Origin: an uncultured Rhodobacterales bacterium
GTDB lineage: Bacteria > Pseudomonadota > Alphaproteobacteria > Rhodobacterales > CAZPXZ01
Assembly (NCBI GenBank): GCA_964586735.1
Contig: CAZPIN010000125.1
Location: 563 to 64,562 of the forward strand
Length of the DNA: 64,000 nucleotides
Direction of reading: 5' to 3'
Positions 18,494-52,162 of the stretch are shown here, in pieces; within the stretch, counting starts at the first letter, position 1; the number at the start of each line of letters is the position of its first letter. The notes below the pieces were generated by a model, which saw nothing but the letters and a program-made list of their open reading frames with translations, was not told the origin of the DNA and made no database searches. A program made the translations under genes and the position numbers.

Positions 18494-18801
18494 GGGTTGC
18501 CTCTGACCTCGGCGGCGCCGCGGACGGGCGTCGCTCGCGGCGCTCTTTGCTACCGCGCCCTGTACCCAAGGTAGTGCAAAACCACGCATGATTCCGCGCG
18601 CATGCCTTGCCGGAGGCTTCCGACATAGCCGGCCGCCGCGGTTTGGCAATGCTGGATTGCCGCAGAGTGCCTGTCCAGTCTGCCGCTTGCCAAAGCCGCA
18701 TACCGCCTTAAGGGGCAAACGCAGGTACTGGCTACGATGAATTGGCGCCAGTCAAGACTACACTGTTCCGGCGAAAGCGACTCGCGCGTTTCGGGACTGC
18801 C

Positions 18802-19110
18802 TCACACAGGCGCTCCGTTCCCCCAGCTCCCGTTGCCTTTCATCGCCTCGTCGATGCTGGGCGCCCTCAACAGCCGGATCCGCCAGCTGTCCAGATCCTC
18901 CTCCGACGCCGCCCGCAGCCGTTCATCCAGATCGTCTGGAACCTCGCCGAAACGCTCTTGGGCAATACCTAAGAGTACCTCGACTTTGCCTTCCGCCCAG
19001 CCTTTCGCTAGGCCCCGAGCCTCGCCCCGAGCCTCGCGTTCCGCAAGCAGACCCGGGGACAGCTGCTCTATCGCCATGTCCATCATCTCTTTACCTCTCT
19101 CGTTTCCCAA
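18802..19110 (-). CDS. Stand-alone DUF4351-like C-terminal-domain ORF (copy of the C-terminus of the upstream Rpn-like gene)
   Basis: It aligns end to end with the last ~100 aa of 19174..20232 ('GNERGKEMMDMAIEQLSPG...RFGEVPDDLDERLRAASEEDLDSW...EAMKGNGSWGNGAPV'). It is in the same frame as the upstream gene and is offset from it by 348 nt. Confidence 0.6.
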   Translation of the reverse strand: MGNERGKEMMDMAIEQLSPGLLAEREARGEARGLAKGWAEGKVEVLLGIAQERFGEVPDDLDERLRAASEEDLDSWRIRLLRAPSIDEAMKGNGSWGNGAPV

Positions 19111-19173
19111 AGCCTCAAGCGCCAGGCGGCGGCACCGCTCCGGCGGGAGCGCCTCAGGCGATTCGGGGCCACC

Positions 19174-20232
19174 TCACACTGGCGTCCCGTTTCCCCAGCT
19201 CCCGTTGCCTTTCATCGCCTCATCGATGTTGGGCGCGTCCAGCACCCGGTCCAGCCAGTCGTCGAGCTTCTCCTCAGACGCCGCTAGAAGCTGCGCCTCC
19301 AGATCACTCGGCTCTACGCCGAAACGCTTCCGGACAACGCGCAAGATCGACTCGACTTTGACTTCCGCCCGGCCCTCCGCCCGGACTTCAGCAAGCCGAC
19401 CCGGGGACAGCTGCTCTATCGCTATGTCCATCATCTCTTTACCTCTCTTGTTTCCCAAAGCCTCAAGCGCCAGGCGGCGGCACCGCGCATTGTCCTTCAG
19501 GCCGTTGACGATGTTAACAGCAATCGCCGTGCCTTTCAACTGCAGCTCCTCCATGATGTACCGATAGGCAAAGCCATACAGATCCCGTATCAGACCGTCG
19601 GTAACGTCCTTGCGGTTCTCCAGCCCAATCGCCACCAGCAGCGCCCAGAAATCGGGGTTCGCGTACAGCCTTTCCAAGGGTATCTCTCCCAGCAGAAGCA
19701 AATGCGTCGGCCCCATGCTGAAAAAGCCGCCCTCGAAGCCCATTGCCTTCAGTATCTCCTCGACGGTCGGCGGGACTCTGTCAGCGGCGGGGCCATGTAC
19801 CACCAGCCCCGCCAGCATCAGTATGGTCTTGCCTTCAAACGGGCCCTTCGGCCTGGACAGGTCTTCCGCCGCCAAGGCCGCATTGGCGCTAAGCTGCATC
19901 CGCGCCATCCGCTCGTAGTTGTGCTTGTGCTCCAAGACAGCGGCGAGGACAGCCTCGTCTGAAAGGTCGCCGACGAGGAGACCGTCCAGCTCCCGTCGCC
20001 GGCCGCCTTTGGTGATGACCGTACCGGACAGGAGCCGGACATTGTACAGTCGGCTGACCCGCGCTTTCGCCACCTCGACGATCATCCACATCAGCCCGCA
20101 AATGGACCCGGAGTCGCCGGTTGCGATGCGGAACGACGTGTCGTAGGGATGATGCTCGAAGTCCACCCTGAATGGAGGAGGGGACTCCTCCGGGCCTTGC
20201 GGCGATTCAGCGGGTTGTATTCTGATGGTCAT
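19174..20232 (-). CDS. Rpn/YhgA-like PD-(D/E)XK nuclease family protein with DUF4351-like C-terminal domain (paralog A)
   Basis: N-terminal 'HHPYDTSFRI' resembles the Rpn 'HDxxFK' motif. 'RELDGLLVGD...AAVLEHKHNYERMARMQL' resembles the Rpn 'D...hhhEhQS' nuclease core, with K in place of Q. The C-terminal 'RAEGRAEVKVESILRVVRKRFGVEPSDLEAQLLAASEEKLDDWLDRVL' has the DUF4351 pattern. Confidence 0.7.
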   Translation of the reverse strand: MTIRIQPAESPQGPEESPPPFRVDFEHHPYDTSFRIATGDSGSICGLMWMIVEVAKARVSRLYNVRLLSGTVITKGGRRRELDGLLVGDLSDEAVLAAVLEHKHNYERMARMQLSANAALAAEDLSRPKGPFEGKTILMLAGLVVHGPAADRVPPTVEEILKAMGFEGGFFSMGPTHLLLLGEIPLERLYANPDFWALLVAIGLENRKDVTDGLIRDLYGFAYRYIMEELQLKGTAIAVNIVNGLKDNARCRRLALEALGNKRGKEMMDIAIEQLSPGRLAEVRAEGRAEVKVESILRVVRKRFGVEPSDLEAQLLAASEEKLDDWLDRVLDAPNIDEAMKGNGSWGNGTPV

Positions 20233-21050: not shown

Positions 21051-21079
21051 TTGACGTTCCTGCCGTTGTTTGCCATATT
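21051..21079 (+). promoter_or_regulatory. Candidate sigma70-type promoter of rpsB-tsf
   Basis: TTGACG-N17-CATATT, about 110 nt upstream of the rpsB start. Confidence 0.35.
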
Positions 21080-21189
21080 GCCTCCATTCCACACGCAGGC
21101 AACGGGACGGCTGCGCCTGCGCCGCCGTCCCTCCGGTTGTCCGGCCGCTGGCCGGATCGCGCCTGCGGAGGCAGAAACCGGAGGGTAAC

Positions 21190-22812
21190 TTGAACATTCC
21201 GCATTTCACCATGCGCCAGCTGCTGGAGGCTGGCGTGCATTTCGGCCATCGCACCGACCGCTGGAACCCCAAGATGGCCCAGTACATCTACGGGGCGCGA
21301 GGCGGCATCCACATCATCGACCTGACCCAGACCGTGCCTCTGCTGCACCAGGCGCTGGTGGCCATCCACCAGTGCGTGGCCAAGGGCGGCCGGCTGCTGA
21401 TGGTTGCCACCAAGCCCCAGGCTCGGGAGCCCATCCGTCAGGCGGCGGTGAGCGGCCAGCAGTTTTACATCAACAACCGCTGGCTGGGCGGCACGCTGAC
21501 CAACTGGAAGACCGTCTCGGCCTCGATCAACCGGCTGGTCGACCTGGAGAAGACGCTCGACAACCACGAGGCGGGGTTTTCCAAGAAGGAGCGCCTGCAG
21601 CTGGAGCGGCAGCGCGACAAGGTGGAGCTGGCCCTTGGCGGCATCCGCAACATGGGCACGCTGCCGGACATGCTGTTCGTGGTCGACGTCAACGAGAAGC
21701 GCATCGCCGTGGCGGAGGCTCGCAAGATCGGCATACCGGTGGTGGCCATCGTCGACACCAACTCCGACCCCACCGGCATCGACTACCCCATTCCCGGCAA
21801 CGACGACGCCACGCGGGCGGTAAGCCTGTACTGCGACCTCATCCTTGGCACGCTGATCGACGCTCTCGAAGTGCAGCTTGGCAGCCAGATGGAGGATCCT
21901 GGCGAGGCCAACGCGCCGGCGGGCGAGGCGGCGCTGAAGGAGGCGGCGGCTTCGGCTGGCGCCGATTCGCCGGCTGCCGCGGAGGAGGCTGTTGCCCAGT
22001 CGGCGGCTTCTCCGGTCGCGACGGCCGCTGTCGGCGCCGCGTCTCCACCAGCCGCGCCCGAGGTGTCTGCCGCCGCCGCAGCCGTGTCGCCGGTCGCGCC
22101 CGCTCCAGCGGATGCGCCCGCGCAGTTTGCGGCTGAGCCGGTTTCTGCTCCCGCGCCTGCAGCGCCTGTCGCATCGCCACCTGCAGTGGAGGCTCCAGCG
22201 GCCCCATCTCCCGCAGCGTCTCCAGCGGCCGAAGTCCCCGCGGCTGCGCCGCCAGCGGTTGAGCCGCCCCCGGCTCCCGCGCCTGCAGCGCCTGTCGCAT
22301 CGCCAACTGCAGTGGAGGATCCGGCGACCCCATCTCCCGCAGCGTCTCAAGCGGCCGAAGTTCCCGCGGCTGCGCCGCCAGCGGTTGAGCTGGTACCAGC
22401 CCCCGCGCCAGAAGCGCCCGTCACATCGCCACCCGCAGTGGAAGCCCCAGCGGTCCCATTTCACGCAGCGTCTCCAGCGGCCGAAGTCCCCGTGGCTGCG
22501 CCGCCAATGGTCGAGGCGGTACCAGCCTCCACGCCGGAAATGCCTTCCGCCGCACCGTCGACAGTGGAGGCTCCGGTGGTTCCATCTCCCGATTCGTCTA
22601 CTGCAGTTGAGGTTCCAGCGGCTCCATCTCCCTCTCCGTCTCCTGTGGTCGAAACCCCCGTGGCAGCGCCGCCAGCGGTGGAGTCCCAGTCGGCCACAGC
22701 GCCCGTCGGCGGCGTCGCGGACCCTGTGCAGTCGCCAGCCGCCGCGCCCGCTGCAGAGGAGGCGGCGCCGTCGCCAGCAACGGACGGCACCGCCGGGGAG
22801 GCATCCCAGTGA
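21190..22812 (+). CDS. rpsB: 30S ribosomal protein S2 with a ~290-aa Ala/Pro-rich repetitive C-terminal extension
   Basis: '[24 protein letters not shown]...' is the canonical S2 core. The start is TTG at 21190 after RBS 'ggaggg', or ATG at 21211. The tail begins near aa 260. Confidence 0.9.
22147..22690 (+). repeat. 126-bp (42-codon) tandem repeat, ~4 copies, inside the rpsB tail
   Basis: The string 'gctcccgcgcctgcagcgcctgtcgcatcgcca' recurs at 22147 and 22273. Diverged copies begin near 22399 and 22525. The peptide unit is '[38 protein letters not shown]..'. Confidence 0.85.
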
Positions 22813-35845: not shown

Positions 35846-36904
35846 ATGGCCTACCCGATGGGAGAGCAGCCGCGCCAGAATCAGGGCGGCGAAGAGACCA
35901 CTGAGACCGAGCGGCTGGAGGCATGGATGCAGGGCTGGCCGAGCCAGTTCTACGACGGCTACAGCTTCAGGATACTCAGCAACATGGAAACAGCGTTGGC
36001 GGTCATCGTTTACGCCGTGCGAAAAGCCGGAAAGCACAGGCTTGCAAAGAAGCTGGAGGGAGGCTCGCTGGTAATGGCTCCCACTCGCCTGGTCGGTGAA
36101 ACCCTGCGCCAGAGATACCGCGACCTTTCGTACAGGTGGAAGCCCAAAAGAAAAGGTTCTAACGAGATTCGGATTGACATTGAGGCCACCAGTGGCTCCG
36201 ACCAGCTGGTCACGGTCCGCTCGACGGACTACTCGGTTCAGGGAGCGTTGCAGGAGGCAGCTTCGCAGAAGAGGGTCAGCCGCCGCGCCCCCGGATTCAC
36301 GATGGTCATCAATTTCGGCCCCAGGGGTCTTCGGGTGTCCTGCGTGTTCGAGGAGATGTTTTCGGACTACGACGAGCTTGAGGGGCTCGGGCCTCGCAAC
36401 ATAACTGTCCAGCTGGACCTTATGGCGATGACGCTTGAGGAAATCCTTGCGGCATTCGACTGCCGTACCGCGTGTGTCCTTGGGATACTCCGCATCGCCA
36501 ACAGGCCGCGGGAGTTTCGCAAGGCGGACATTTTCAGGGTGATCAAACTGGCGGCGGGGGACTGGGAGCGCGAGCAGATGGTCGCTCTCTGCATTGCATG
36601 CCGGTTCAAGGGAGTGTACTATAGGTGGGCGCTGCAGGCGCTGGACGAAGCAGGAATAGGGAGAGACAACGTGGAAGGCATGATGGAAATCCGGGAACGG
36701 GAGGCCAAGGCCGAGGGCGTGGCCGATGTGCTGCTGCGGCAAGTACGGGAGAAGTTCAAGGACATATCTGACCGGAGGGAGGCGCAGGTGCGGTCAGCTA
36801 CGCTTGAGCAGCTGGAGGAGTGGGCGGTGCGCCTTCTGCATGCCCGCGACATCGATGCGCTGTTCGCCGGAAGCGGCCGGGCTAGGAGCCAGCCTCAGGG
36901 ATAG
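35846..36904 (+). CDS. Divergent Rpn-like family protein with DUF4351-like C-terminal domain (paralog B)
   Basis: The ATG at 35846 follows RBS 'aaaggagaaag'. The C-terminal 'REREAKAEGVADVLLRQVREKFKDISDRREAQVRSATLEQLEEWAVRLLHARDIDALF' has the DUF4351 pattern. 'FYDGYSFRIL' resembles the Rpn N-terminal motif, but the nuclease core motif is not clear. Confidence 0.55.
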   Translation: MAYPMGEQPRQNQGGEETTETERLEAWMQGWPSQFYDGYSFRILSNMETALAVIVYAVRKAGKHRLAKKLEGGSLVMAPTRLVGETLRQRYRDLSYRWKPKRKGSNEIRIDIEATSGSDQLVTVRSTDYSVQGALQEAASQKRVSRRAPGFTMVINFGPRGLRVSCVFEEMFSDYDELEGLGPRNITVQLDLMAMTLEEILAAFDCRTACVLGILRIANRPREFRKADIFRVIKLAAGDWEREQMVALCIACRFKGVYYRWALQALDEAGIGRDNVEGMMEIREREAKAEGVADVLLRQVREKFKDISDRREAQVRSATLEQLEEWAVRLLHARDIDALFAGSGRARSQPQG

Positions 36905-37000
36905 CCGTCGGCGGCTTGGCTGCGGTAGCGGCGACTTACTCTCTCCTGCTGCTCTGGGCAGCGGCCGACGCTGGACGAGGCAGGAATTGGGAGAGACAAC

Positions 37001-37234
37001 GTGGAAGGCATGATGGAAATCCGAGAACGGGAGGCCAAGGCCGAGGGCAAGGCCGAGTTGCTGCTCCAACTTGTACGGCAGAAGTTCAAGGACATATCCG
37101 ACCGGAGGGAGGCACAGGTGAAGTCGGCCTCGCTTGAGCAGCTGGAGAATTGGGCGGCGCGTCTGCTGAGCCCTCGCGATCTCGATTCGCTGTTTGGCGG
37201 GAGTGGCCGGGCAAAGCGCCAGCCGCAGGGGTAG
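37001..37234 (+). CDS. Stand-alone DUF4351-like C-terminal-domain ORF (copy of the paralog B C-terminus)
   Basis: 'EGMMEIREREAKAEGKAELLLQLVRQKFKDISDRREAQVKSASLEQLENWAARLL' closely matches the last 77 aa of 35846..36904. It is offset by 330 nt and is in the same frame. Confidence 0.55.
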   Translation: MEGMMEIREREAKAEGKAELLLQLVRQKFKDISDRREAQVKSASLEQLENWAARLLSPRDLDSLFGGSGRAKRQPQG

Positions 37235-37299
37235 CCGTCGGCGGCTCGGCTGCGGCTGCAGCGACTGCAGAGTAAGGATGCATTCGGTTGACCGCAGCG

Positions 37300-37517: not shown

Positions 37518-38624
37518 ATGGCAAAGAAAATCAAGATCAGGAAATACAGGCCACCGAGGCTTTCCGCGTCGCACTACACCAGGTATGCGTTTGAGCAGCT
37601 GATCACTGGGTATTCGGACGAGCCTGCAGAGCGCTCGTCCCTCGTCCGTACCGCTACCCGTCTTCTTATCGAGGAAGCCTTGGAGGAGGAGGCCAAGGAT
37701 GTCATGGGCCGCGGCTATTACCAGCATGGAGGCGCGAATGGAGGGGGATACCGCAACGGCACCCGCATATGCCGCCTCAAGTCCGCCAGCAGCGTCATCG
37801 AATACGGTGCGCCGCAGATTACCGGCAGAGAGGGGGGATTCAGCTCCGGAATCCGGAGGCATCTCAAGAAGCGCGGTGAAGTGGCCGAGAGTCTGGCGAT
37901 GCACATTCTGGCCCGCGGCTGCACCGCCCGCGAAGTCAACTGCTCCTTCACCGGCGAGGACGGAAAGCCGCTTCTTTCGCGAGCCGCGGTGAAGCGGCTA
38001 GCCGAGCGGCTGCAGGAGGACTACAGCAACTTTTCCACCCGCGAACTGTACCGGTACAAGGTTGCCTATCTTGTCTTCTGCCCTGTCATCGAACGGCGAC
38101 ATCCGGGCAAAAAGAAGGAACGAGTCATGGCAGCTTGGGGGAGTATCGAAACGGAAAGATGGCGATACGTCGAAAAGGGAAAGAAAGTTCTGCTTGGGCT
38201 CATGGCCAGCGCAAAGGAGGACGAGGAGACCGTAACCGGCTTCTTCCAGGACATGCGTTCCCGCGGTCTCGCTGACCCTGTGATGGTGCTTGCCGACGGC
38301 GCGCCAGGAATTACCAAGGCGATCGAGGCATGCTTTCCAGACGCGGTGCGGCAGCGCAGACTGGTTAATAGGTATCGCGCTCTGGAATCCAAAGTGCCGA
38401 AGAGCGTTTGGCCAGAGTTCGAAACGCGGGTGAAGGCCGCCTATCAGGCTCCCGGCAGGTTCCTGTCCCGCGACCTGGCCAAAGAGGTGGAGAGGGACTT
38501 CGAGGGGAAGCATCCAGAAGCGGTAGCCTGCTTTCTGGACGATTTCGACGCGTGCAATGCGTATCTTCGCATGCCGGTCGACCATCGCCAAGAGATTGAA
38601 AACGTCAACCTGTTCGCGTGGTAG
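37518..38624 (+). mobile_element. IS256/Mutator-family transposase-like gene, degenerate (probably inactive)
   Basis: 'VMVLADGAPGITKAIEACFPDAVRQRRLVNRYRALESKVPKS' parallels IS256 'SDgh.Gl..ai...fp.a.wQRC.vH..RN'. Conserved residues are replaced: the first Asp region is 'YLVFCPV', and C->R, H->N. The ORF stops at 'IENVNLFAW', where 'irTTN.iE' continues in intact members. I found no inverted repeats. Confidence 0.65.
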
Positions 38625-45652: not shown

Positions 45653-47206
45653 CTAACGGTCGGGGGCTGCGGCCGCCAGCTGCGCCGCCCGCCGCAGCGC
45701 CAGGCCGAGCTCTGTCAATGGTTGCGGCTGGGCTTCGGCCGCCAGCTGCGCCGCCCGCCGCAGCGCCCAGGACTTCTGGATGGTCTCCTGAAGTTCAAAC
45801 TCGGGATCCGAATCGTGTACCACGCCGCCGCCGGCCTGGATGTGCATGCGACCGTCCTTGAACACGGCGGTGCGCAGGGCGATGCAGGTGTCCATGTCGC
45901 CCGAAGAGGAAAAGTAGCCCAGCGCGCCGGCGTAGACGCCCCGCTTGAGCGACTCGAGCTCGTCGATGATCTCCATTGCCCGGATCTTGGGAGCGCCGGA
46001 CACGGTGCCGGCGGGCAGGGCGGCCAGCAGCGCGTCGAGGGCGGTGAGGTCGTCGCGCAGGTTGCCCTCTACGTTGGAGACGATGTGCATGACATGGCTG
46101 TAGCGTTCGACCGTAAACTCCTCGGTGGGGCGCACCGTGCCCACCTTGGCGACCCGTCCGACGTCGTTGCGCCCCAGATCGAGCAGCATCAGATGCTCGG
46201 CGCGCTCTTTGGGGTCGGCCAGCAGCTCCTCTTCCAGCTGCCGGTCCTCCTCGGCGGTTGCGCCGCGGGGGCGGGTGCCGGCGATGGGCCGCAGCGTGAT
46301 CCTGCGGTCGCGGCAGCGCACCAGAATCTCCGGGCTGGCGCCGGCCACCTGAAAGCCGCCAAACTCGAAGTAGAACATGTACGGCGAGGGGTTGGTGCGG
46401 CGCAGCGCCCGGTACAGGTCGAAGGGCGAATGGGGGAAGTCGATGCTCCACCGCTGGCTTGGCACCACCTGGAAGATGTCGCCGGCGCGGATGTACTCCT
46501 TGGCGCGCAGCACAGTCTCGCGGAACGTCTCCGGCGCCGTCTGCGCCTCGAACTCCAGCTGCTGGCCATCGCCGTCGCGGGCGCGGGGCAGGGCAAGAGG
46601 GGACTCGAGCTTCCCTAGCGCGCTCTCCAGCCTGCCATGCGCCTCCTGCCAGGCGGATTCGGCGTCCACCTCGGGATCGTGCCAGGCCGGCGCGCACAGC
46701 ATGGTCTCGTCGCGGACGCTGTCGATGATGGCCAGCAGGCCGGGGCGAAGCAGCAGCGCGTCGGGCAGGCCAAGGGGATCCTCGTTGGGCGGCGGCAGCC
46801 GCTCGATCAGGCGCGCCATGTCGTAGCCGAGATAGCCGAACAGTCCCGCCGCCATCGGCGGAGCGCCCTCGGGCAGGTCCATGGCGCACGAGTCCAGCAG
46901 CGCACGGAGGTTTTCCAGCGGAGGAGCCGATTCTGGCCTGAAGTCGCCATCCGCCACGGCCGTCTCCGCCTGTCCGCCGCGGCAGCGCCAGACGAGATCG
47001 GGGGCGACGCCAACCACCGAGTAGCGTCCGCGGGTTTCGCCGCCGGTGACCGATTCGAGGAGGAACGCGCTGTCCTCGCCGCGGGCGAGCCGCAGGTACA
47101 GCGAAACCGGCGTGTCGAGGTCCGAGCTCACGTCCAGCCGCAGCAGCTGGCTGCGGCCTTCCCGCCAGCCGCGGGCGAAGGTCTCGGCATCAGGTGTAAC
47201 GCGCAT
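45653..47206 (-). CDS. trpE: Anthranilate synthase component I
   Basis: 'LLESV', 'GAPKIRAMEIIDELE', 'RGVYAGALGYF'. The ATG at 47206 ('MRVTPDAETF') is the likely start. Confidence 0.95.
   Translation of the reverse strand: MRVTPDAETFARGWREGRSQLLRLDVSSDLDTPVSLYLRLARGEDSAFLLESVTGGETRGRYSVVGVAPDLVWRCRGGQAETAVADGDFRPESAPPLENLRALLDSCAMDLPEGAPPMAAGLFGYLGYDMARLIERLPPPNEDPLGLPDALLLRPGLLAIIDSVRDETMLCAPAWHDPEVDAESAWQEAHGRLESALGKLESPLALPRARDGDGQQLEFEAQTAPETFRETVLRAKEYIRAGDIFQVVPSQRWSIDFPHSPFDLYRALRRTNPSPYMFYFEFGGFQVAGASPEILVRCRDRRITLRPIAGTRPRGATAEEDRQLEEELLADPKERAEHLMLLDLGRNDVGRVAKVGTVRPTEEFTVERYSHVMHIVSNVEGNLRDDLTALDALLAALPAGTVSGAPKIRAMEIIDELESLKRGVYAGALGYFSSSGDMDTCIALRTAVFKDGRMHIQAGGGVVHDSDPEFELQETIQKSWALRRAAQLAAEAQPQPLTELGLALRRAAQLAAAAPDR
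45671..45767 (+). repeat. 31-bp perfect direct repeat (two copies, 35-bp spacer) in the 3' end of trpE
   Basis: 'ggccgccagctgcgccgcccgccgcagcgcc' occurs at 45671-45701 and 45737-45767. It encodes a duplicated 'ALRRAAQLAA' in the TrpE C-terminus. Confidence 0.9.
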
Positions 47207-47306
47207 CGTCAAGGAGCGTCGGTTCGGCGGTTGTACGTCCGTCAGATAGAGGATGGGGCGGGCCGCCAGCGGCAAGCGTTACGTGCGTGTACAAGGCACG
47301 GCCTGG

Positions 47307-47687
47307 CTAGCTCGCTACCCGCTTCCGGCGTGGGGACCGGGCGGTAACTTCATTGAGGGCAGGGTCGCTGTCGGTGTCGTCGTCGAACACCGCGTTGATA
47401 CTGCTGGCCGTGAGTATCCGGCACAGCCAGGTGTCAATTTGCTGCTTCGAAGCGGTGCGCACCTGCGCCTGCCTGTCTTCGGGCACGCTCCCATACTTGC
47501 TCGTTGCCAGCATCAGGAAGTTCTCGAACTTGGCCTTGGCCCAGCCCTTATCCCATCCCTCGGACCAGTACTCGCCCCAGTCCTCGGCCACGCCCCTAGC
47601 CATGGTTTGCTTCCAGTCTTCGGCCCGAAGCGCCTCTAACGACGTGTCCATAATCTCCTCATTTGCCTTCGGTGCCGCAACACCCAC
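47307..47687 (-). CDS. DUF4351-like C-terminal-domain ORF (single module)
   Basis: 'EEIMD...WSEGWDKGWAKAKFENFLMLATSKYGSVPEDRQAQVRTASKQQIDTWLCRILTASSINAVF'. It has a GTG start. The N-terminal 'MGVAAP' is shared with 48160..48726. Confidence 0.5.
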   Translation of the reverse strand: MGVAAPKANEEIMDTSLEALRAEDWKQTMARGVAEDWGEYWSEGWDKGWAKAKFENFLMLATSKYGSVPEDRQAQVRTASKQQIDTWLCRILTASSINAVFDDDTDSDPALNEVTARSPRRKRVAS

Positions 47688-47825
47688 CGTTCACCCTCTT
47701 GAGGCAAACGCACGAAACGCCATGCCCGGCGATACGTGCCAACAGAACATACAGTTTTAGTTCTTCGTGTAAAACTTCGGCCTCCTGAACGGATTGGCAA
47801 TGTCCTCGTCATAAGAGGGGGCGGT
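47688..47825 (-). pseudogene. Remnant of the central part of an Rpn-like paralog
   Basis: Bases 47709-47822 align at DNA level with 49081-49194 of paralog C ('...YTKN' followed by an in-frame TAA where paralog C has Gln). Confidence 0.5.
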
Positions 47826-48059
47826 CGCCTGCCCGCCGCGGCGGCGCCAGGCGATTTCGGAGCGGCGCCGGTCACCAAGTAGCATCGGTGCGCTTTGCCT
47901 TCGGTGACCGATTCGAGAAAGAGCGTCATGTCCTCAATGGGGGAGCGCCTCAGGAACAGCGAAACCGGCGTGTCGATGTCCGGTCCTGCATTCAGGCGAA
48001 GCAGCTGGGTGCGACCCTCCTGCCAGCCGCGAAGTCTCGGCACCAGAGGCAACGCGCGT
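47826..48059 (-). pseudogene. Duplicated 5' fragment of trpE (about 75 codons) with its start codon destroyed
   Basis: 'RGWQEGRTQLLRLNAGPDIDTPVSLFLRR...FLESVTEGKAHRCYLVTGAAP' aligns with TrpE 'RGWREGRSQLLRLDVSSDLDTPVSLYLRL...LLESVTGGETRGRYSVVGVAP'. The ATG has become ACG (plus-strand 'cgt' at 48057-48059 versus 'cat' at 47204-47206), and there is a small indel. Confidence 0.75.
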
Positions 48060-48159
48060 CGCCAAGGAAACGTGGTCAGGCAGTCGTTCGTCTGTCTGGC
48101 TTTAGCTGGAACGGACCGCCGACGGCAAGCGCCAAACGGGTGCCCAAGACATGGCCAGT

Positions 48160-48726
48160 CTACTTGGCCGTACGCTTCAGCGGTGGTGACTTGACGGGAA
48201 CATCATTGACGGCGTGGCCGTTGCCTGCGTCTTCGTCAAACACCGCATTGAGACTTGTAGCAGTGAGTATCCGGGGTAGCCAGTATTCAATCTGCGGTAC
48301 CGAAGAGGCGCGCACCAGTTCCTCTATGTGACCTGGCACTCGCCGATACTTGCTCCTTGCCAGTATCAGGAAGTCCTCGGCCTTGGCTTCGGACCTGGCC
48401 TTGGCCTCGTTCTGGGTCATGCCCCTGTCATCGTCGAACACCAGGCTGAGACTGGGAGCCCTGAGAACCCGGAGCAGCCAGTTGTCAAGCTGCGGTATCC
48501 AAGCGGAGCGTACCTGCGCCTCTCTGTCCTCCGGCACTCGACCAAACTTGCTCCTCGCCAGCATCAGGAAGTCCTCGGTTTTGGCCGTGGCCTCGGCCTG
48601 TTCCATGCCATCGTCTGCGACTACCTCATAGGCTACGGCCATAATCTCTTCGACCAACGGCTTCGATGCCACTTTGTCCGACGTCTCCATGGTCTCCTCC
48701 ATCACTTCCGGTCCTGCGACGCCCAT
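48160..48726 (-). CDS. ORF made of two tandem DUF4351-like modules
   Basis: Module 1 is 'TEDFLMLARSKFGRVPEDREAQVRSAWIPQLDNWLLRVLRAPSLSLVF'. Module 2 is 'AEDFLILARSKYRRVPGHIEELVRASSVPQIEYWLPRILTATSLNAVF'. Confidence 0.5.
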   Translation of the reverse strand: MGVAGPEVMEETMETSDKVASKPLVEEIMAVAYEVVADDGMEQAEATAKTEDFLMLARSKFGRVPEDREAQVRSAWIPQLDNWLLRVLRAPSLSLVFDDDRGMTQNEAKARSEAKAEDFLILARSKYRRVPGHIEELVRASSVPQIEYWLPRILTATSLNAVFDEDAGNGHAVNDVPVKSPPLKRTAK

Positions 48727-48803
48727 AATCGCTGTCGGGCAACTACGGCAGTCTCAGCGATTCTGTGCTTACCCTCAGCACGGCTGCCAGTTCGCAGAAC
48801 CAT

Positions 48804-49910
48804 CTAGTCGGTGCGCTTGCCGCTGCCGTTGAACACCGCCTCGATGTCGGGCGCGGCATACAGGCGATCAAGCCAGTCATCGACCTGCTCCTGCGAAGCG
48901 TTGCGCACCTGGTCTGCCAAATGGTCAGGGACGCTCTGAAACCGCCTTTCGGCAGCCCGCAGAAATGTCACACTTCGGCCTTCGGCCAGACCTTCGGCCC
49001 AAAACATCTCGAATGACGGGTCCATAATCTCCTCCACCATGTCCTGTCCCAGAACGTTCGCAATCGCCTTCTCGATTCGAACGCGCGAAACGCCTTGCTC
49101 GGCGAGTGCACCTACAGCATACTGCCTCTGGTTCTTCGTGTAAAGCCCGAGCCCCTCTGCAATATATTCAAGGTCCTTGTCACTCAGCGGCGGTCCGTCA
49201 CGGGTTCCCCTTGCAACCAGCAGCGGCGCACCCGCCGCCGCGTTCTTGGTGAGTTCCTGCCGGCGAAGGTTCCCCAGGTAGAAGTGGACGACCTTCTCCG
49301 CCGTCAGCGTTTCCGCCTTTTCCTCGGGTGTCAGTTTCGCCAGCTCGGCCAGAGATTTCGGGCGGGTCTGCGTCGCCTTCCCGTTCAGTACAATAACGCC
49401 ATTGAGGATTGGCACTTCGCCCCATGTCGTTACTCCATCTTCCACCAGCTGGCGGGTAAGACGGAACGCGGAGCTGACCACCTGAAGCTCGGCCAGCTTC
49501 GTCTTGTCCGACTTGTGCTCATAGGCGCTGACCACGGGCCTCCCGTCGGTGTGCTTTGCCAGCAGGCCCAAATCGGCCTCGTCGATGAGGAAGTCTCCGC
49601 CCTCAACGCGAGTGGGAAGCGGGCGGGGATGAAAATTCCTGTCGAGATTCCGGTAGACCACACCCGCCAGCGTGAGGCGAAGCAGCTCCCAAAGGGTATC
49701 GGGGAAATTGGCGAGCCAGCGGATGTTGGCATCCCACGGGTGGGCCCTTCTCCTTGGTGGCTTCTCTGTTCCAGCCTGTTCCTGCTCCGGCTGGTTCGAC
49801 TCGTGTGTCTGTTCTGGCATGGCCATGCCTCCTCTGTCTGGGGTGACGCTTGGCATCGCCGCCCGGCGAATCACTCCGCCGCCGCGGCCATGCTCGTTTG
49901 TGCAGTCCAC
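48804..49910 (-). CDS. Rpn/YhgA-like PD-(D/E)XK nuclease family protein with DUF4351-like C-terminal domain (paralog C)
   Basis: 'HPWDANIRWLANFPDTLWELL' is an Rpn-like N-terminal motif. 'DEADLGLLAKHTDGRPVVSAYEHKSDKTKLAELQV' fits the D...EhK core. The C-terminus reads 'WAEGLAEGRSVTFLRAAERRFQSVPDHLADQVRNASQEQVDDWLDRLYAAPDIEAVF'. Confidence 0.7.
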   Translation of the reverse strand: MDCTNEHGRGGGVIRRAAMPSVTPDRGGMAMPEQTHESNQPEQEQAGTEKPPRRRAHPWDANIRWLANFPDTLWELLRLTLAGVVYRNLDRNFHPRPLPTRVEGGDFLIDEADLGLLAKHTDGRPVVSAYEHKSDKTKLAELQVVSSAFRLTRQLVEDGVTTWGEVPILNGVIVLNGKATQTRPKSLAELAKLTPEEKAETLTAEKVVHFYLGNLRRQELTKNAAAGAPLLVARGTRDGPPLSDKDLEYIAEGLGLYTKNQRQYAVGALAEQGVSRVRIEKAIANVLGQDMVEEIMDPSFEMFWAEGLAEGRSVTFLRAAERRFQSVPDHLADQVRNASQEQVDDWLDRLYAAPDIEAVFNGSGKRTD

Positions 49911-50266
49911 AGAGAATCAAGACGCGACCCGTGTCAAGTTGAAAGAATTTGTAACCGTTCCGAAAAAGATCACGCCATGAGGCAAATCCATATTCTACAA
50001 CGCGTTAGGGGCAAAAATTTGCCGTTTATCGGGAGGCCATTTTTCCGCCGGGATGACACGCCACTTCGTCACGTTGTCCGGAATCGTGCCTGTGCCGCGA
50101 CGCGATACCCGCGGATGCCTTGTGACCAATTCGCTCAGACCGTCCGCCACGCCGTCCATCCATGCGCACCCGCGTTCGGTTGGCGCGAGCGCTCGCTATC
50201 CGGCACGGGCCCGGCTGTCAAGCGGATGGGGCAGGCGGCCGATTCGCCTGCCGGAGGGATGGGGTT

Positions 50267-52162
50267 CTACAGGGACTCGGAAAGCAGGCCGAGGGCCGCG
50301 TCCACGCTGGCCGGGTTGACCGCCACGCCGTAGTCCTCGGACAGGTGGTCGATGAAGCGCACCAGAATGTCGCCGCCAAGGCTGGCGCGCAGCTGCGGGC
50401 GTATGGTTTCGACTTCGCCGTCCACCTCCTCCTCGTCGCCGGGGGTGATCTCGTCGAGCCGCGCCACCAGCGCCTGCCGCGGCGCGCGGGCCTTGCCGGC
50501 GAGATGGTCTCCTGTCTCGGCGCGGAACAGGTCGTCAGCCAGATCGCGGGTGAGGACGGGGTCGGGAGAGCGGCGGCGGAACGGCTCGCTGGTCGCCGTC
50601 TCCAGCTCCATGGACGCGGCGACATCCTCCAGGCTCTCGCCCGCCTCGACGCGCTCAAGGGCGGAGTCCGCGGCCGCCTCGGTGGCGGCCTCCCATGCCT
50701 CGTCCTCGAGGATGCGGACAATTTCCTCGCGGGCCTCGTCGAGCGTCTGGTCGCGGCTCTCGTCAATCGCGTCGACGCGCAGCGCGGCGATGCCGCCGTC
50801 GTCAAACTCCAGCAGGTCGAGATCCTCCTCGACCAGCGAATCGAACGCCGCCTCGAGGAAGGCGCGGTCCTGGGGCAGGCCCTCGGCCAGGGCGTCGTCG
50901 GCGTCGCGTCCGAAGCGGTCGAGGCCCTCGCGGACGCCCAGCTCGATCTCCATCTCACCGGCGATTTCCTCCAGGCTGAGGCCGGCGGCGCGGCGGTCCT
51001 CGATGTCGGCGATGATCTCGGGCATCTGGTCAAGCGCGGTTTCGAGGGCGAGGGCGCCGGCGATCTCCTCCCGCACCTCGTCGAACGGCCGCTCGCTGGC
51101 CTCCGCGGCCGCCACCACCTCCAGCGCCGCCCAGCCGAAGGGCGTCCGCGCGGGTCCGGCGGGTCCGGGCTCGGTGACCGCGAAGGCGGCCTCGGCGATG
51201 GTCTCGCTAAGGTCCTCGCGCAGCGCTTCGCCCAGATCCACCTCCGTTTCGGTGAGGCCCATCTCGCCGGCGATGGTCAGCAGGCTGACGTCCTCGCCCA
51301 GCCGGTCCAGCGCCTCCTGGGCCTCCTCCTCGGTCTCGAACACGATCTGCCGCAGGGTGCGCGTGGCGGGGGTGCTGTAGAGGTCGAGCTGGGACTGGTA
51401 GTACTCTTCGGCCTCTTCGTCGCTCACCGACTCGGCGTCGGCCAGGCTGTCGGGACTAACCCATATGTACGTCAGGCCGCGGCGCTCCGGGGTGCGGAAG
51501 TTGTCCTGGTTCTCGTCGAGGTAGCTGGCGATCGCCTCCTCCTCGGACGGGGCGGGGGCTTCGATCTTGTCCTCCTCGATCAGCAGGTAGGTGATGGTGC
51601 GGTTCTCAAGGCCGCGGAGGATGTACTGCCGGTAGGCTGCCTCGGGGGCTGCCGTGCCGGCGGCGACCGCCGACGTTAGATGCCTGCGCACCAGGTCCCT
51701 GCGGACGCTGGCCTCGAACTCCTTCTGCGACATGCCGACGCGGGCGATCTGGCTGGCGTACACGGCCGGGTCGAACCGGCCGCCGGCGTCCTGAAAGGCG
51801 GGCAGGGAGGCGATGGCCTCCGACACCGCGTCGTCGGGCGCCGAGAGTCCGAGGTCGACTGTGGCCTGGTTGACGGCCGCCCGGCGGGTGAGCTCCGCCA
51901 GCACCGTTCCGTCTATGCCCCGCTCGAGGGCCTCGGCGACGCTGAGCCTGCCGCCTTCGCCGGACGCCTGGTCGACGGCCGCCTGGAAGGCGTTGAGGAA
52001 CACGTTGGCGGAGACCTCCTGGTCGCCCACCGTCGCCACCGTCTGGCTGGCCCGGTTGATGAAGACGTCGCCCACGCCCCAGACGGCGAAACTGGCCACC
52101 AGCAGGGCGATCATCAGCTTCGCCAGCCAGGAGCGCACCATGTTGCGCATTCGGTTGAGCAT
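50267..52162 (-). CDS. ppiD: Periplasmic chaperone PpiD-like (SurA N-terminal/PPIase family)
   Basis: N-terminal membrane anchor 'WLAKLMIALLVASFAVWGVGDVF'. It has the length and Asp/Glu-rich chaperone body typical of PpiD, and the common trpE-adjacent position. Confidence 0.8.
   Translation of the reverse strand: MLNRMRNMVRSWLAKLMIALLVASFAVWGVGDVFINRASQTVATVGDQEVSANVFLNAFQAAVDQASGEGGRLSVAEALERGIDGTVLAELTRRAAVNQATVDLGLSAPDDAVSEAIASLPAFQDAGGRFDPAVYASQIARVGMSQKEFEASVRRDLVRRHLTSAVAAGTAAPEAAYRQYILRGLENRTITYLLIEEDKIEAPAPSEEEAIASYLDENQDNFRTPERRGLTYIWVSPDSLADAESVSDEEAEEYYQSQLDLYSTPATRTLRQIVFETEEEAQEALDRLGEDVSLLTIAGEMGLTETEVDLGEALREDLSETIAEAAFAVTEPGPAGPARTPFGWAALEVVAAAEASERPFDEVREEIAGALALETALDQMPEIIADIEDRRAAGLSLEEIAGEMEIELGVREGLDRFGRDADDALAEGLPQDRAFLEAAFDSLVEEDLDLLEFDDGGIAALRVDAIDESRDQTLDEAREEIVRILEDEAWEAATEAAADSALERVEAGESLEDVAASMELETATSEPFRRRSPDPVLTRDLADDLFRAETGDHLAGKARAPRQALVARLDEITPGDEEEVDGEVETIRPQLRASLGGDILVRFIDHLSEDYGVAVNPASVDAALGLLSESL

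Follow-up and report, generated by a model that had tools for sequence, protein, structure and literature searches.

How does a gene of tryptophan synthesis come to lie behind a broken copy of its own beginning, with pieces of a nuclease-like gene on either side of that copy? This question is raised by locus C, which occupies positions 46967-49910, minus strand, of a 64,000-nucleotide (nt) stretch of DNA from an uncultured Rhodobacterales bacterium (assembly GCA_964586735.1, contig CAZPIN010000125.1, positions 563 to 64,562). The whole stretch is here called the window, and all positions are counted within it. Locus C begins with paralog C, one of three paralogs (A, B and C) in the window, and runs into trpE, which encodes anthranilate synthase component I. 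A preliminary description, made from the letters alone, had noted a partial copy of trpE, a decayed remnant and several orphan modules here. The explanation put forward below is that a block carrying an Rpn-type gene was inserted between ppiD and trpE and was then remodelled by successive tandem duplications. As a whole, we regard this explanation as probable.

Repeat structure of locus C

The duplications can be read directly in the DNA. A map of open reading frames (ORFs), a repeat finder and self-BLASTN agree on them; the pieces were aligned one by one, and local alignments were compared with shuffled sequences. Self-comparison, chosen beforehand as the check, does find off-diagonal similarity: 46967-47549 and 47826-48402 are direct copies, with 72.3% identity over 584 nt (expectation value, E, 1e-86), almost the pair first proposed (46967-47560 and 47826-48420).

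In the direction of transcription, the first element is paralog C (48804-49820), a predicted divergent Rpn-family (RpnL-like) gene. It is full length, as described before: the longest ORF runs from a GTG at 49910 to 48804, and the annotated product, P0001, has 338 amino acids (aa) and begins at the ATG at 49820. After a 77-nt spacer (IG1, 48727-48803) comes an orphan ORF with two type II DUF4351-like modules (48160-48726; 188 aa from the ATG at 48726, or 176 aa from the conserved methionine at 48690 in its annotated form, P0020). It is supported by the ORF map, by the repeats and by a hidden Markov model (HMM) of the module, which matches two domains in it (E 5e-33 and 4.5e-30). It is followed by a copy of the 100 nt that precede trpE (48060-48159), by a copy of trpE codons 1-80 (trpE', 47826-48059), and by a decayed, 138-nt remnant of the middle of paralog C (47688-47825). 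A single-module orphan ORF (47307-47687; HMM E 5e-35) has 126 aa from a GTG, or 114 aa from the conserved methionine at 47651, which is preceded by GAGGAG. Last come the 100-nt spacer that is the original of the copy at 48060-48159 (47207-47306) and intact trpE (45653-47206), whose first 240 nt are the parent of trpE'. The order and positions of the two orphan ORFs and of trpE are those already given in the preliminary description.

The trpE' copy is 77.4% identical to 46967-47206. Its start codon has changed from ATG to ACG, as was noticed before, and it carries a 5-nt and a 1-nt deletion, hence two frameshifts; it extends to codon 80, slightly beyond the 75 or so codons first reported. At 47826/47825 the homology to trpE stops abruptly and homology to paralog C begins (from about 49196 onward). 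The junction, correctly placed near 47825 from the start, thus joins nt 240 of trpE to about codon 222 of an rpn copy (counted in the 338-aa protein), with microhomology of at most 3-4 nt, CGG(A). The 138-aa ORF at 47636-48052 is a chimera, as had been claimed: it is a spurious read-through from trpE', in frame +1, into the remnant.

The remnant aligns to 49196-49060 with several indels. Local alignment of 47825-47690 with the middle of paralog C gives z=23 against shuffles, and self-BLASTN matches 47618-47773 to 48992-49144 at 70.6%. The in-frame TAA reported earlier lies at 47759-47757, where paralog C has CAG. Two other ideas were discarded. IG1 is not a homologue of the remnant or of the middle of paralog C (z about 0). 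Nor does the remnant come from a lost paralog resembling P0006, a full-length relative from another genome, because its DNA is 70% identical to paralog C with identical runs of 14-15 nt.

A module of about 170 nt is present at 47375-47541, 48229-48412 and 48426-48592, with mutual identities of 75-78%; self-BLASTN gives 77.8% for 47375-47541 against 48426-48592 and 75% for 48229-48412 against 48427-48603. According to the module HMM, the window contains exactly eight modules, and locus C has four of these.

It is scarcely credible that collapsed or chimeric reads made the apparent repeat and the trpE'/rpn junction. The junction is indeed present in one assembly only, and an independent Logan contig (SRR16090825), which matches 49855-48682 at 100%, does not span it. 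However, the copies at locus C are only 72-78% identical and are thus not confusable by assemblers; with differences at about 25-28% of positions, collapse is implausible. The substitutions in trpE' are biased from GC to AT (28 from S to W against 17 from W to S), and it has indels of its own, a pattern expected of real, old DNA; its GC content is 66.7%, against 71.7% for the trpE counterpart. Similar duplications are moreover found at two other loci of the window.

The block between ppiD and trpE

Upstream, the block is bounded by a ppiD-like gene (50267-52162, minus strand; Pfam SurA_N_3 and Rotamase_2). As had been suggested, the spacer between this gene and trpE was compared with that of related genomes. 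A TrpE scan of 185,579 species-representative genomes yielded 80 alphaproteobacterial loci, 77 of which hold both ppiD and trpE. The distance from the ppiD stop to the trpE start is -6 to 260 nt (median 8 nt) in 76 of the 77, the remaining value being an extension artefact, while in the window it is 3,060 nt. The GC content is 58-62% across 47300-50200 and 70-73% on both sides. Since the gap in relatives is short and is here filled with 3,060 nt of low-GC DNA, the block of about 3 kb is an insertion. None of the 80 trpE loci carries these modules.

The same comparison alters one detail of the preliminary description, which had held that about 100 bp beside the pseudo-copy match the region upstream of trpE. 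The match exists (66.7% between 48060-48159 and 47207-47306, with two gaps). Given the median gap of 8 nt in relatives and the low GC content of the block, though, the matching sequence is island DNA, the 3' flank of a module gene, and not an ancestral spacer of trpE.

The edges of the block carry no inverted repeats. A direct repeat of 17/20 positions lies near both of them, at 50221-50240 (after the ppiD stop) and 47248-47267 (before the trpE start). An extended alignment of the sequence after ppiD with the trpE-proximal spacer is marginal (p~0.02 against shuffles), and the repeat could be either an attachment-site-like scar or chance.

These edges bear on another possible origin, in which the Rpn-like gene would be an active transposase and the repeats products of transposition. 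The family was historically annotated as a putative transposase ('transposase_31'), the three paralogs stand at three unrelated housekeeping junctions, and the edge repeat would fit. The missing terminal inverted repeats nevertheless make this origin very improbable, as do repeats that are head-to-tail with their ends inside genes, an edge repeat of only p~0.02, and paralogs only 16-19% identical in the N-terminal domain, so that nothing has moved recently. Zhong et al. (PMC10400941) likewise report no evidence of autonomous transposition. Nothing at locus C suggests inversions or transpositions, and insertion followed by tandem duplication remains the preferred origin.

No minus-strand terminator-like site was found in the block, so that read-through into trpE is plausible, and an Rfam scan of 46500-50500 found no leader, attenuator or other RNA. 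Intact trpE matches Pfam Chorismate_bind (E 9e-95) and Anth_synt_I_N (E 4e-30), and its relatives align from residue 1. Its 3' end contains a recent 66-nt tandem duplication (45664-45701 against 45730-45767, 37/38 identical; within 45664-45767) that repeats ALRRAAQLAA and carries TrpE about 22 aa past the point where its relatives stop. The best TrpE match, at only 66%, is L002, a Rhodobacterales metagenome-assembled genome with syntenic gyrA-ppiD-trpE-trpGDC; no GTDB species representative is closely related to this genome.

Paralog C as a predicted Rpn-family nuclease

The label 'Rpn-like' holds, and is visible to profile methods only. In a word-indexed protein search, paralog C has just two relatives (54% and 51% identity). 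A family profile was made from paralogs A, B and C and from P0002, and was searched against 1.84 billion cluster representatives, with 3,402 matches. The full-length ones (E 1e-17 to 1e-24) carry PF04754 (E 1e-31 to 1e-35) and PF14261. PF04754 is Transposase_31, YhgA-like, that is, Rpn (COG5464), and PF14261 is DUF4351. In hhalign, the N-terminal 250 columns of the paralog C clade match the PF04754 members (99.4%, E 9e-22, 225 columns); as these columns were compared alone, a match driven only by the C-terminal module is excluded.

The catalytic residues of RpnA are D11, D63, E82 and Q84 (Kingston et al. 2017, PMC5350276). The equivalents in paralog C are D30 (in an HPxD motif), D83 and E101-H-K103 (alignment A4). 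These D/D/ExK residues are kept in paralogs A and C and in the PF04754 members, and paralog B is without the K (E-A-T). An AlphaFold2 (AF2) model of paralog C with a predicted local distance difference test (pLDDT) score of 65 gives weak Foldseek matches, all of them PD-(D/E)XK nucleases; the top ones are EndoMS, EcoO109I, MspJI, Card1 and McrC. On plasmids there is a single match, in Skermanella, to a gene whose annotation reads 'Rpn family recombination-promoting nuclease'. The family profile matched nothing when run against GTDB genomes, two metagenome scans gave no relative of paralog C, and sequence searches of solved structures gave chance matches only. Judged from its sequence, paralog C is a very divergent Rpn/YhgA-like gene with a predicted N-terminal PD-(D/E)XK nuclease domain.

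The C-terminal module

In E. coli, the C-terminal domain of Rpn also exists as a small protein in its own right, RpnS, made by means of an internal promoter and start codon, and RpnS is the antitoxin of the full-length nuclease (PMC10400941). Its helix 1 varies by four-amino-acid repeats that set specificity, and a mismatch in repeat number abolishes neutralisation (PMC10400941).

All eight modules of the window are mutually homologous, and PF14261 is matched above threshold by those of locus B (31.1 and 34.2 bits) and below it by those of locus A (22.1 and 16.6 bits) and by the module of paralog C (12.2 bits). The three orphan modules of locus C give no PF14261 match. An AF2 model of the module is helical (pLDDT 75).

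The features that mark RpnS in E. coli can be sought one by one. In 13 family members, which otherwise share only 20-54% identity, the module opens with an invariant methionine. Just upstream of it, every copy in the window has GGAGGAG, GAGGAG or AAAGAG. The gap lengths in helix 1 of the eight modules are 0, 8, 16, 20, 24, 28, 28 and 28 aa, all multiples of 4. The DNA has 12-nt tandem repeats at 47559-47587 and also at 19012-19037, where the repeat is perfect and encodes EARGEARG. Finally, sigma-70-like sites occur 58-91 nt upstream of the internal methionine in paralog C (49144-49116), the remnant (47773-47746) and paralog A (19539-19489).

In paralog C the site (49116-49144, minus strand) reads TTTACA-17-TATGCT and lies 91 nt upstream of the conserved methionine. 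That methionine, at 49025 and preceded by GGAGGAG, opens a putative RpnS-like internal frame of 73 aa (48807-49025, minus strand) which holds a type I DUF4351-like module. The site in the remnant, TTTACA-16-TATGTT, is at the homologous place, with a stretch of 14/14 identical positions over the -35 region; the remnant is exactly the rpn segment that would carry an internal promoter for the small protein. The promoter scan found two sites in 3.5 kb at locus C against 0.5 expected, two in each region with sites against 0.3-0.5 expected, and none at locus B.

With these four hallmarks of RpnS present, the module of paralog C is predicted from sequence features to be a DUF4351/RpnS domain, and it is probably also made separately from the internal promoter and start codon.

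Origin of the array

A junction in which trpE nt 240 meets an rpn copy near its codon 222 is the mark of a tandem duplication, with a unit extending from mid-rpn as far as trpE codon 80. The preliminary description had concluded that repeated rearrangement took place without destroying trpE. We agree, and can refine this to head-to-tail tandem duplications and one secondary deletion.

A module tree adds a complication. The three orphan modules of locus C cluster with the C-terminus of P0006, P0013_1 and P0014 (type II), and the module of paralog C clusters with P0002, P0007 and P0018 (type I). From their sequences, then, the orphan modules are of a different lineage and are not the product of recent copying from the module of paralog C, which makes a history in one step harder to maintain. 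The single-module ORF is composite, with a paralog-C-like leader, a type II core and a helix 1 expanded by W-containing 4-aa repeats. Its leader matches paralog C at 40/51 positions and the two-module ORF at 33/50. The remnant is judged to be paralog-C-like and, less decisively, so is the leader.

We propose the following as the most economical series of steps. A low-GC block of about 3 kb, carrying paralog C, would have been inserted into the normally tight ppiD-trpE junction, with a small stand-alone RpnS-type (type II) gene already behind that paralog, an arrangement also seen at loci A and B and in rpnE-ypaA of E. coli. Next, some 1.2-1.4 kb between the middle of paralog C and trpE codon 80 (nt 240) would have been duplicated in tandem, leaving a dead trpE' joined to a 5'-truncated rpn. 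Because trpE is whole in the downstream copy, tryptophan synthesis would be unharmed, and trpE' would be an inert passenger. A deletion in the distal copy, probably in the repetitive helix-1 region, would have fused the paralog-C-like leader to a type II module, giving the single-module ORF with its unusually long, W-rich helix 1. In the proximal (upstream) small gene, an in-frame duplication of 198 nt would have given the two-module ORF. The pairwise identities of 72-78% are too close together for the last three steps (the big duplication, the deletion and the 198-nt duplication) to be ordered.

The orphan reading frames

If paralog C works as E. coli Rpn does, it would be a toxic DNA endonuclease checked by its own small C-terminal protein. 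By the same analogy the orphan ORFs would be extra RpnS-like antitoxins or decoys, their transcripts coming either from the internal promoter that has been kept or from read-through. A word-indexed protein search with the two-module ORF finds nothing besides its own annotated form. Among the top 150 representative matches of the family, at least 23 are small proteins with two to four modules, and P0022 has three PF14261 stretches.

The duplicated segments offer a comparison between coding and dead DNA of the same repeat. Against trpE, trpE' shows equal divergence at the three codon positions and a ratio of nonsynonymous to synonymous substitution rates (dN/dS) of 0.92; with two frameshifts and a lost start it behaves as a pseudogene. 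The module pairs are slightly more diverged than the trpE' pair (72% identity), yet their 225 aligned nt are free of indels and both frames are open. Gap events number about 12 in the pseudogene or non-coding parts of the repeat (about 600 nt-lineages) and 0 in the modules (about 450 nt-lineages), which gives roughly P 0.001. Maintenance of the reading frame of the orphan modules is thereby supported at the level of sequence.

Several points weigh against the explanation as a whole. Neither paralog C nor the orphans of locus C have a direct match in Pfam, NCBIfam or PADLOC (PADLOC-DB 2.0.0). The model of the module recovers no significant Foldseek match, and the crystal structure of RpnA-S (7TH0) was not found by Foldseek or by profile search. 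The promoter-like sites are consensus matches only, and the order of duplication and deletion events is inferred from a single genome. The module pairs of locus C have dN/dS of 0.46-0.71 with bootstrap intervals that include 1, so that selection on the amino-acid sequence of the orphans is not demonstrated, and in a genome of 60-70% GC long open frames arise by chance. Finally, the lineage and helix-1 lengths of the orphans differ from those of paralog C's module. By the repeat-number rule of E. coli (PMC10400941) they may therefore have no effect on paralog C, and if module type and helix-1 length both need to match, they would not neutralise it. They might serve as decoys or pair with other paralogs, or might be copies in decay.

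These points lend some weight to a version that keeps the duplication history but takes the orphan ORFs for debris with no function, pseudogene fragments of an island gained by horizontal transfer whose frames are open by chance in a GC-rich genome, with only paralog C and its internal RpnS active. The near-equal divergence of the module pairs at the three codon positions would fit it, as would the missing Pfam matches of the three orphan modules, their mismatch with paralog C in lineage and helix-1 length, and the clear decay of the neighbouring trpE' and remnant. Set against this, the module-coding parts are free of indels and stops when adjacent parts of the same repeat carry many, each orphan retains the conserved methionine with its Shine-Dalgarno-like sequence, and the remnant retains its promoter-like element with the 14/14 identity over the -35 region. 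Multi-module small proteins also recur across many genomes, and the small gene of locus B (dN/dS 0.30, 0.14-0.56) indicates that at least one such downstream copy is constrained. On balance debris is doubtful, though a possibility to be taken seriously.

Two more ambitious ideas give the array a use as a store of cassettes. In one, the orphans would be a working library of RpnS specificity cassettes, including a two-module 'single-chain dimer', that recombine with paralog C in the region of 4-aa repeats or neutralise other or incoming Rpn nucleases. We think this unlikely; if it were true, the chimeric single-module ORF would be the fossil of one exchange. In the other, which we rate slightly lower still, the array would be a reservoir of alternative C-terminal cassettes that recombine at the helix-1 repeats and so exchange, in a single event, the specificity or oligomerisation domain of both the nuclease and its cognate antitoxin, a diversification under phage pressure. 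The single-module ORF is itself a hybrid, with a paralog-C-like middle and leader and a type II core, and in P0013, from another genome, a type II module is fused to a type I module. The N- and C-terminal parts moreover disagree in their similarities (paralog C against P0006, N 37% and C 36%; against P0007, N 29% and C 61%), and this incongruence among P0001, P0006 and P0007 hints that lineages may have exchanged the C-terminal module. It could also reflect differences in rate; the copies are 25-40% diverged with no recent exchange tracts seen, no recombinase or dedicated machinery is present, and the reservoir is judged from one genome. It is worth adding that P0003 is frameshifted exactly in the helix-1 repeat region.

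We return therefore to successive tandem duplication of an inserted Rpn block. Whatever the orphans do, their mismatch with the nuclease and the recurrence of multi-module DUF4351 proteins are concrete leads on how RpnS specificity diversifies.

Loci A and B

The same process can be followed at the two other loci. Locus A has a tandem repeat of 19133-19486 and 18761-19138 (75.7% identity), and locus B one of 36626-36936 and 36955-37266 (84%). In both, a head-to-tail duplication of the 3' end, comprising the last 85-105 codons and a short 3' flank, has given a stand-alone module ORF. The copies at locus A differ by exactly 24 nt, that is two 4-aa repeats. Among the module pairs, only that of locus B is clearly constrained by its dN/dS.

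The synonymous divergence of every tandem-duplicate pair at loci A, B and C is 0.41-0.49, which suggests that the duplications are of similar age, or is a coincidence. The three loci of one genome would form a dated natural series for the process proposed from comparisons in E. coli, from 3' tandem duplication to stand-alone RpnS genes and on to fusion or deletion.

Two other genes of the window may be mentioned. Directly downstream of the module array of locus B lies an ORF for a Mutator-family (IS256-like) transposase (37518-38624; PF00872, E 3e-35). The ribosomal protein S2 ORF at 21070-22812 is 580 aa long, with the S2 domain in residues 51-261, followed by a repetitive, Ala/Pro-rich tail of about 320 aa.

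Comparison with known systems

Three comparisons place locus C among known systems. The first is with E. coli Rpn itself (PMC10400941, PMC5350276). Like it, paralog C has a predicted N-terminal PD-(D/E)XK domain of the transposase_31 type with D / D / E-x-(Q/K), a small C-terminal domain that is helical in the model, an internal methionine behind a purine-rich Shine-Dalgarno-like sequence, promoter-like sites within the gene, a helix 1 whose length varies in 4-aa steps from 12-nt repeats, and a patchy, island-like occurrence. Unlike it, paralog C is missed by the PF04754, NCBIfam and PADLOC models and is linked to the family by profile-profile comparison only. Its third catalytic position is K (the classical ExK) and not Q, its host is an alphaproteobacterium of 70% GC, and it is known here from sequence alone. 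The Rpn family of toxins with intragenic antitoxins would thus extend to lineages where standard models give 'hypothetical proteins' only.

The second comparison is with ordinary segmental tandem duplication by illegitimate, microhomology-level recombination. As there, the repeat is head-to-tail, at the novel junction the unit's 3' end (trpE nt 240) meets its 5' end (mid-rpn), and one intact copy of each interrupted gene survives as the redundant fragments decay. Most segmental tandem duplications collapse quickly; that of locus C differs in being old (about 25% divergence), retained, and later remodelled by deletion and internal duplication. It would also show how a tandem duplication can run into an important biosynthetic gene at no cost, since the distal copy is whole.

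The third comparison is with the stand-alone rpnSs genes. In E. coli these DUF4351 genes (ypaA, which is rpnE-Ss, and rpnC-Ss) arise downstream of rpn by local duplication (PMC10400941), and tandem direct duplication gives rise to whole rpn arrays (Zhong et al. 2023, PMC10400941). The process that forms such arrays is therefore already known for rpn genes, and the features of locus C need no new mechanism. The small DUF4351-type ORFs of the window stand on the same strand directly downstream of rpn and come from local tandem duplication, and those of loci A and B cluster with their own upstream gene, which is exactly the published pattern. At locus C, in contrast, one duplication overran into trpE and left trpE' and a 5'-truncated rpn copy. 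Two points go beyond the published account (PMC10400941): the orphan modules of locus C are of another lineage than the C-terminus of their own upstream gene, paralog C, and one ORF fuses two modules.

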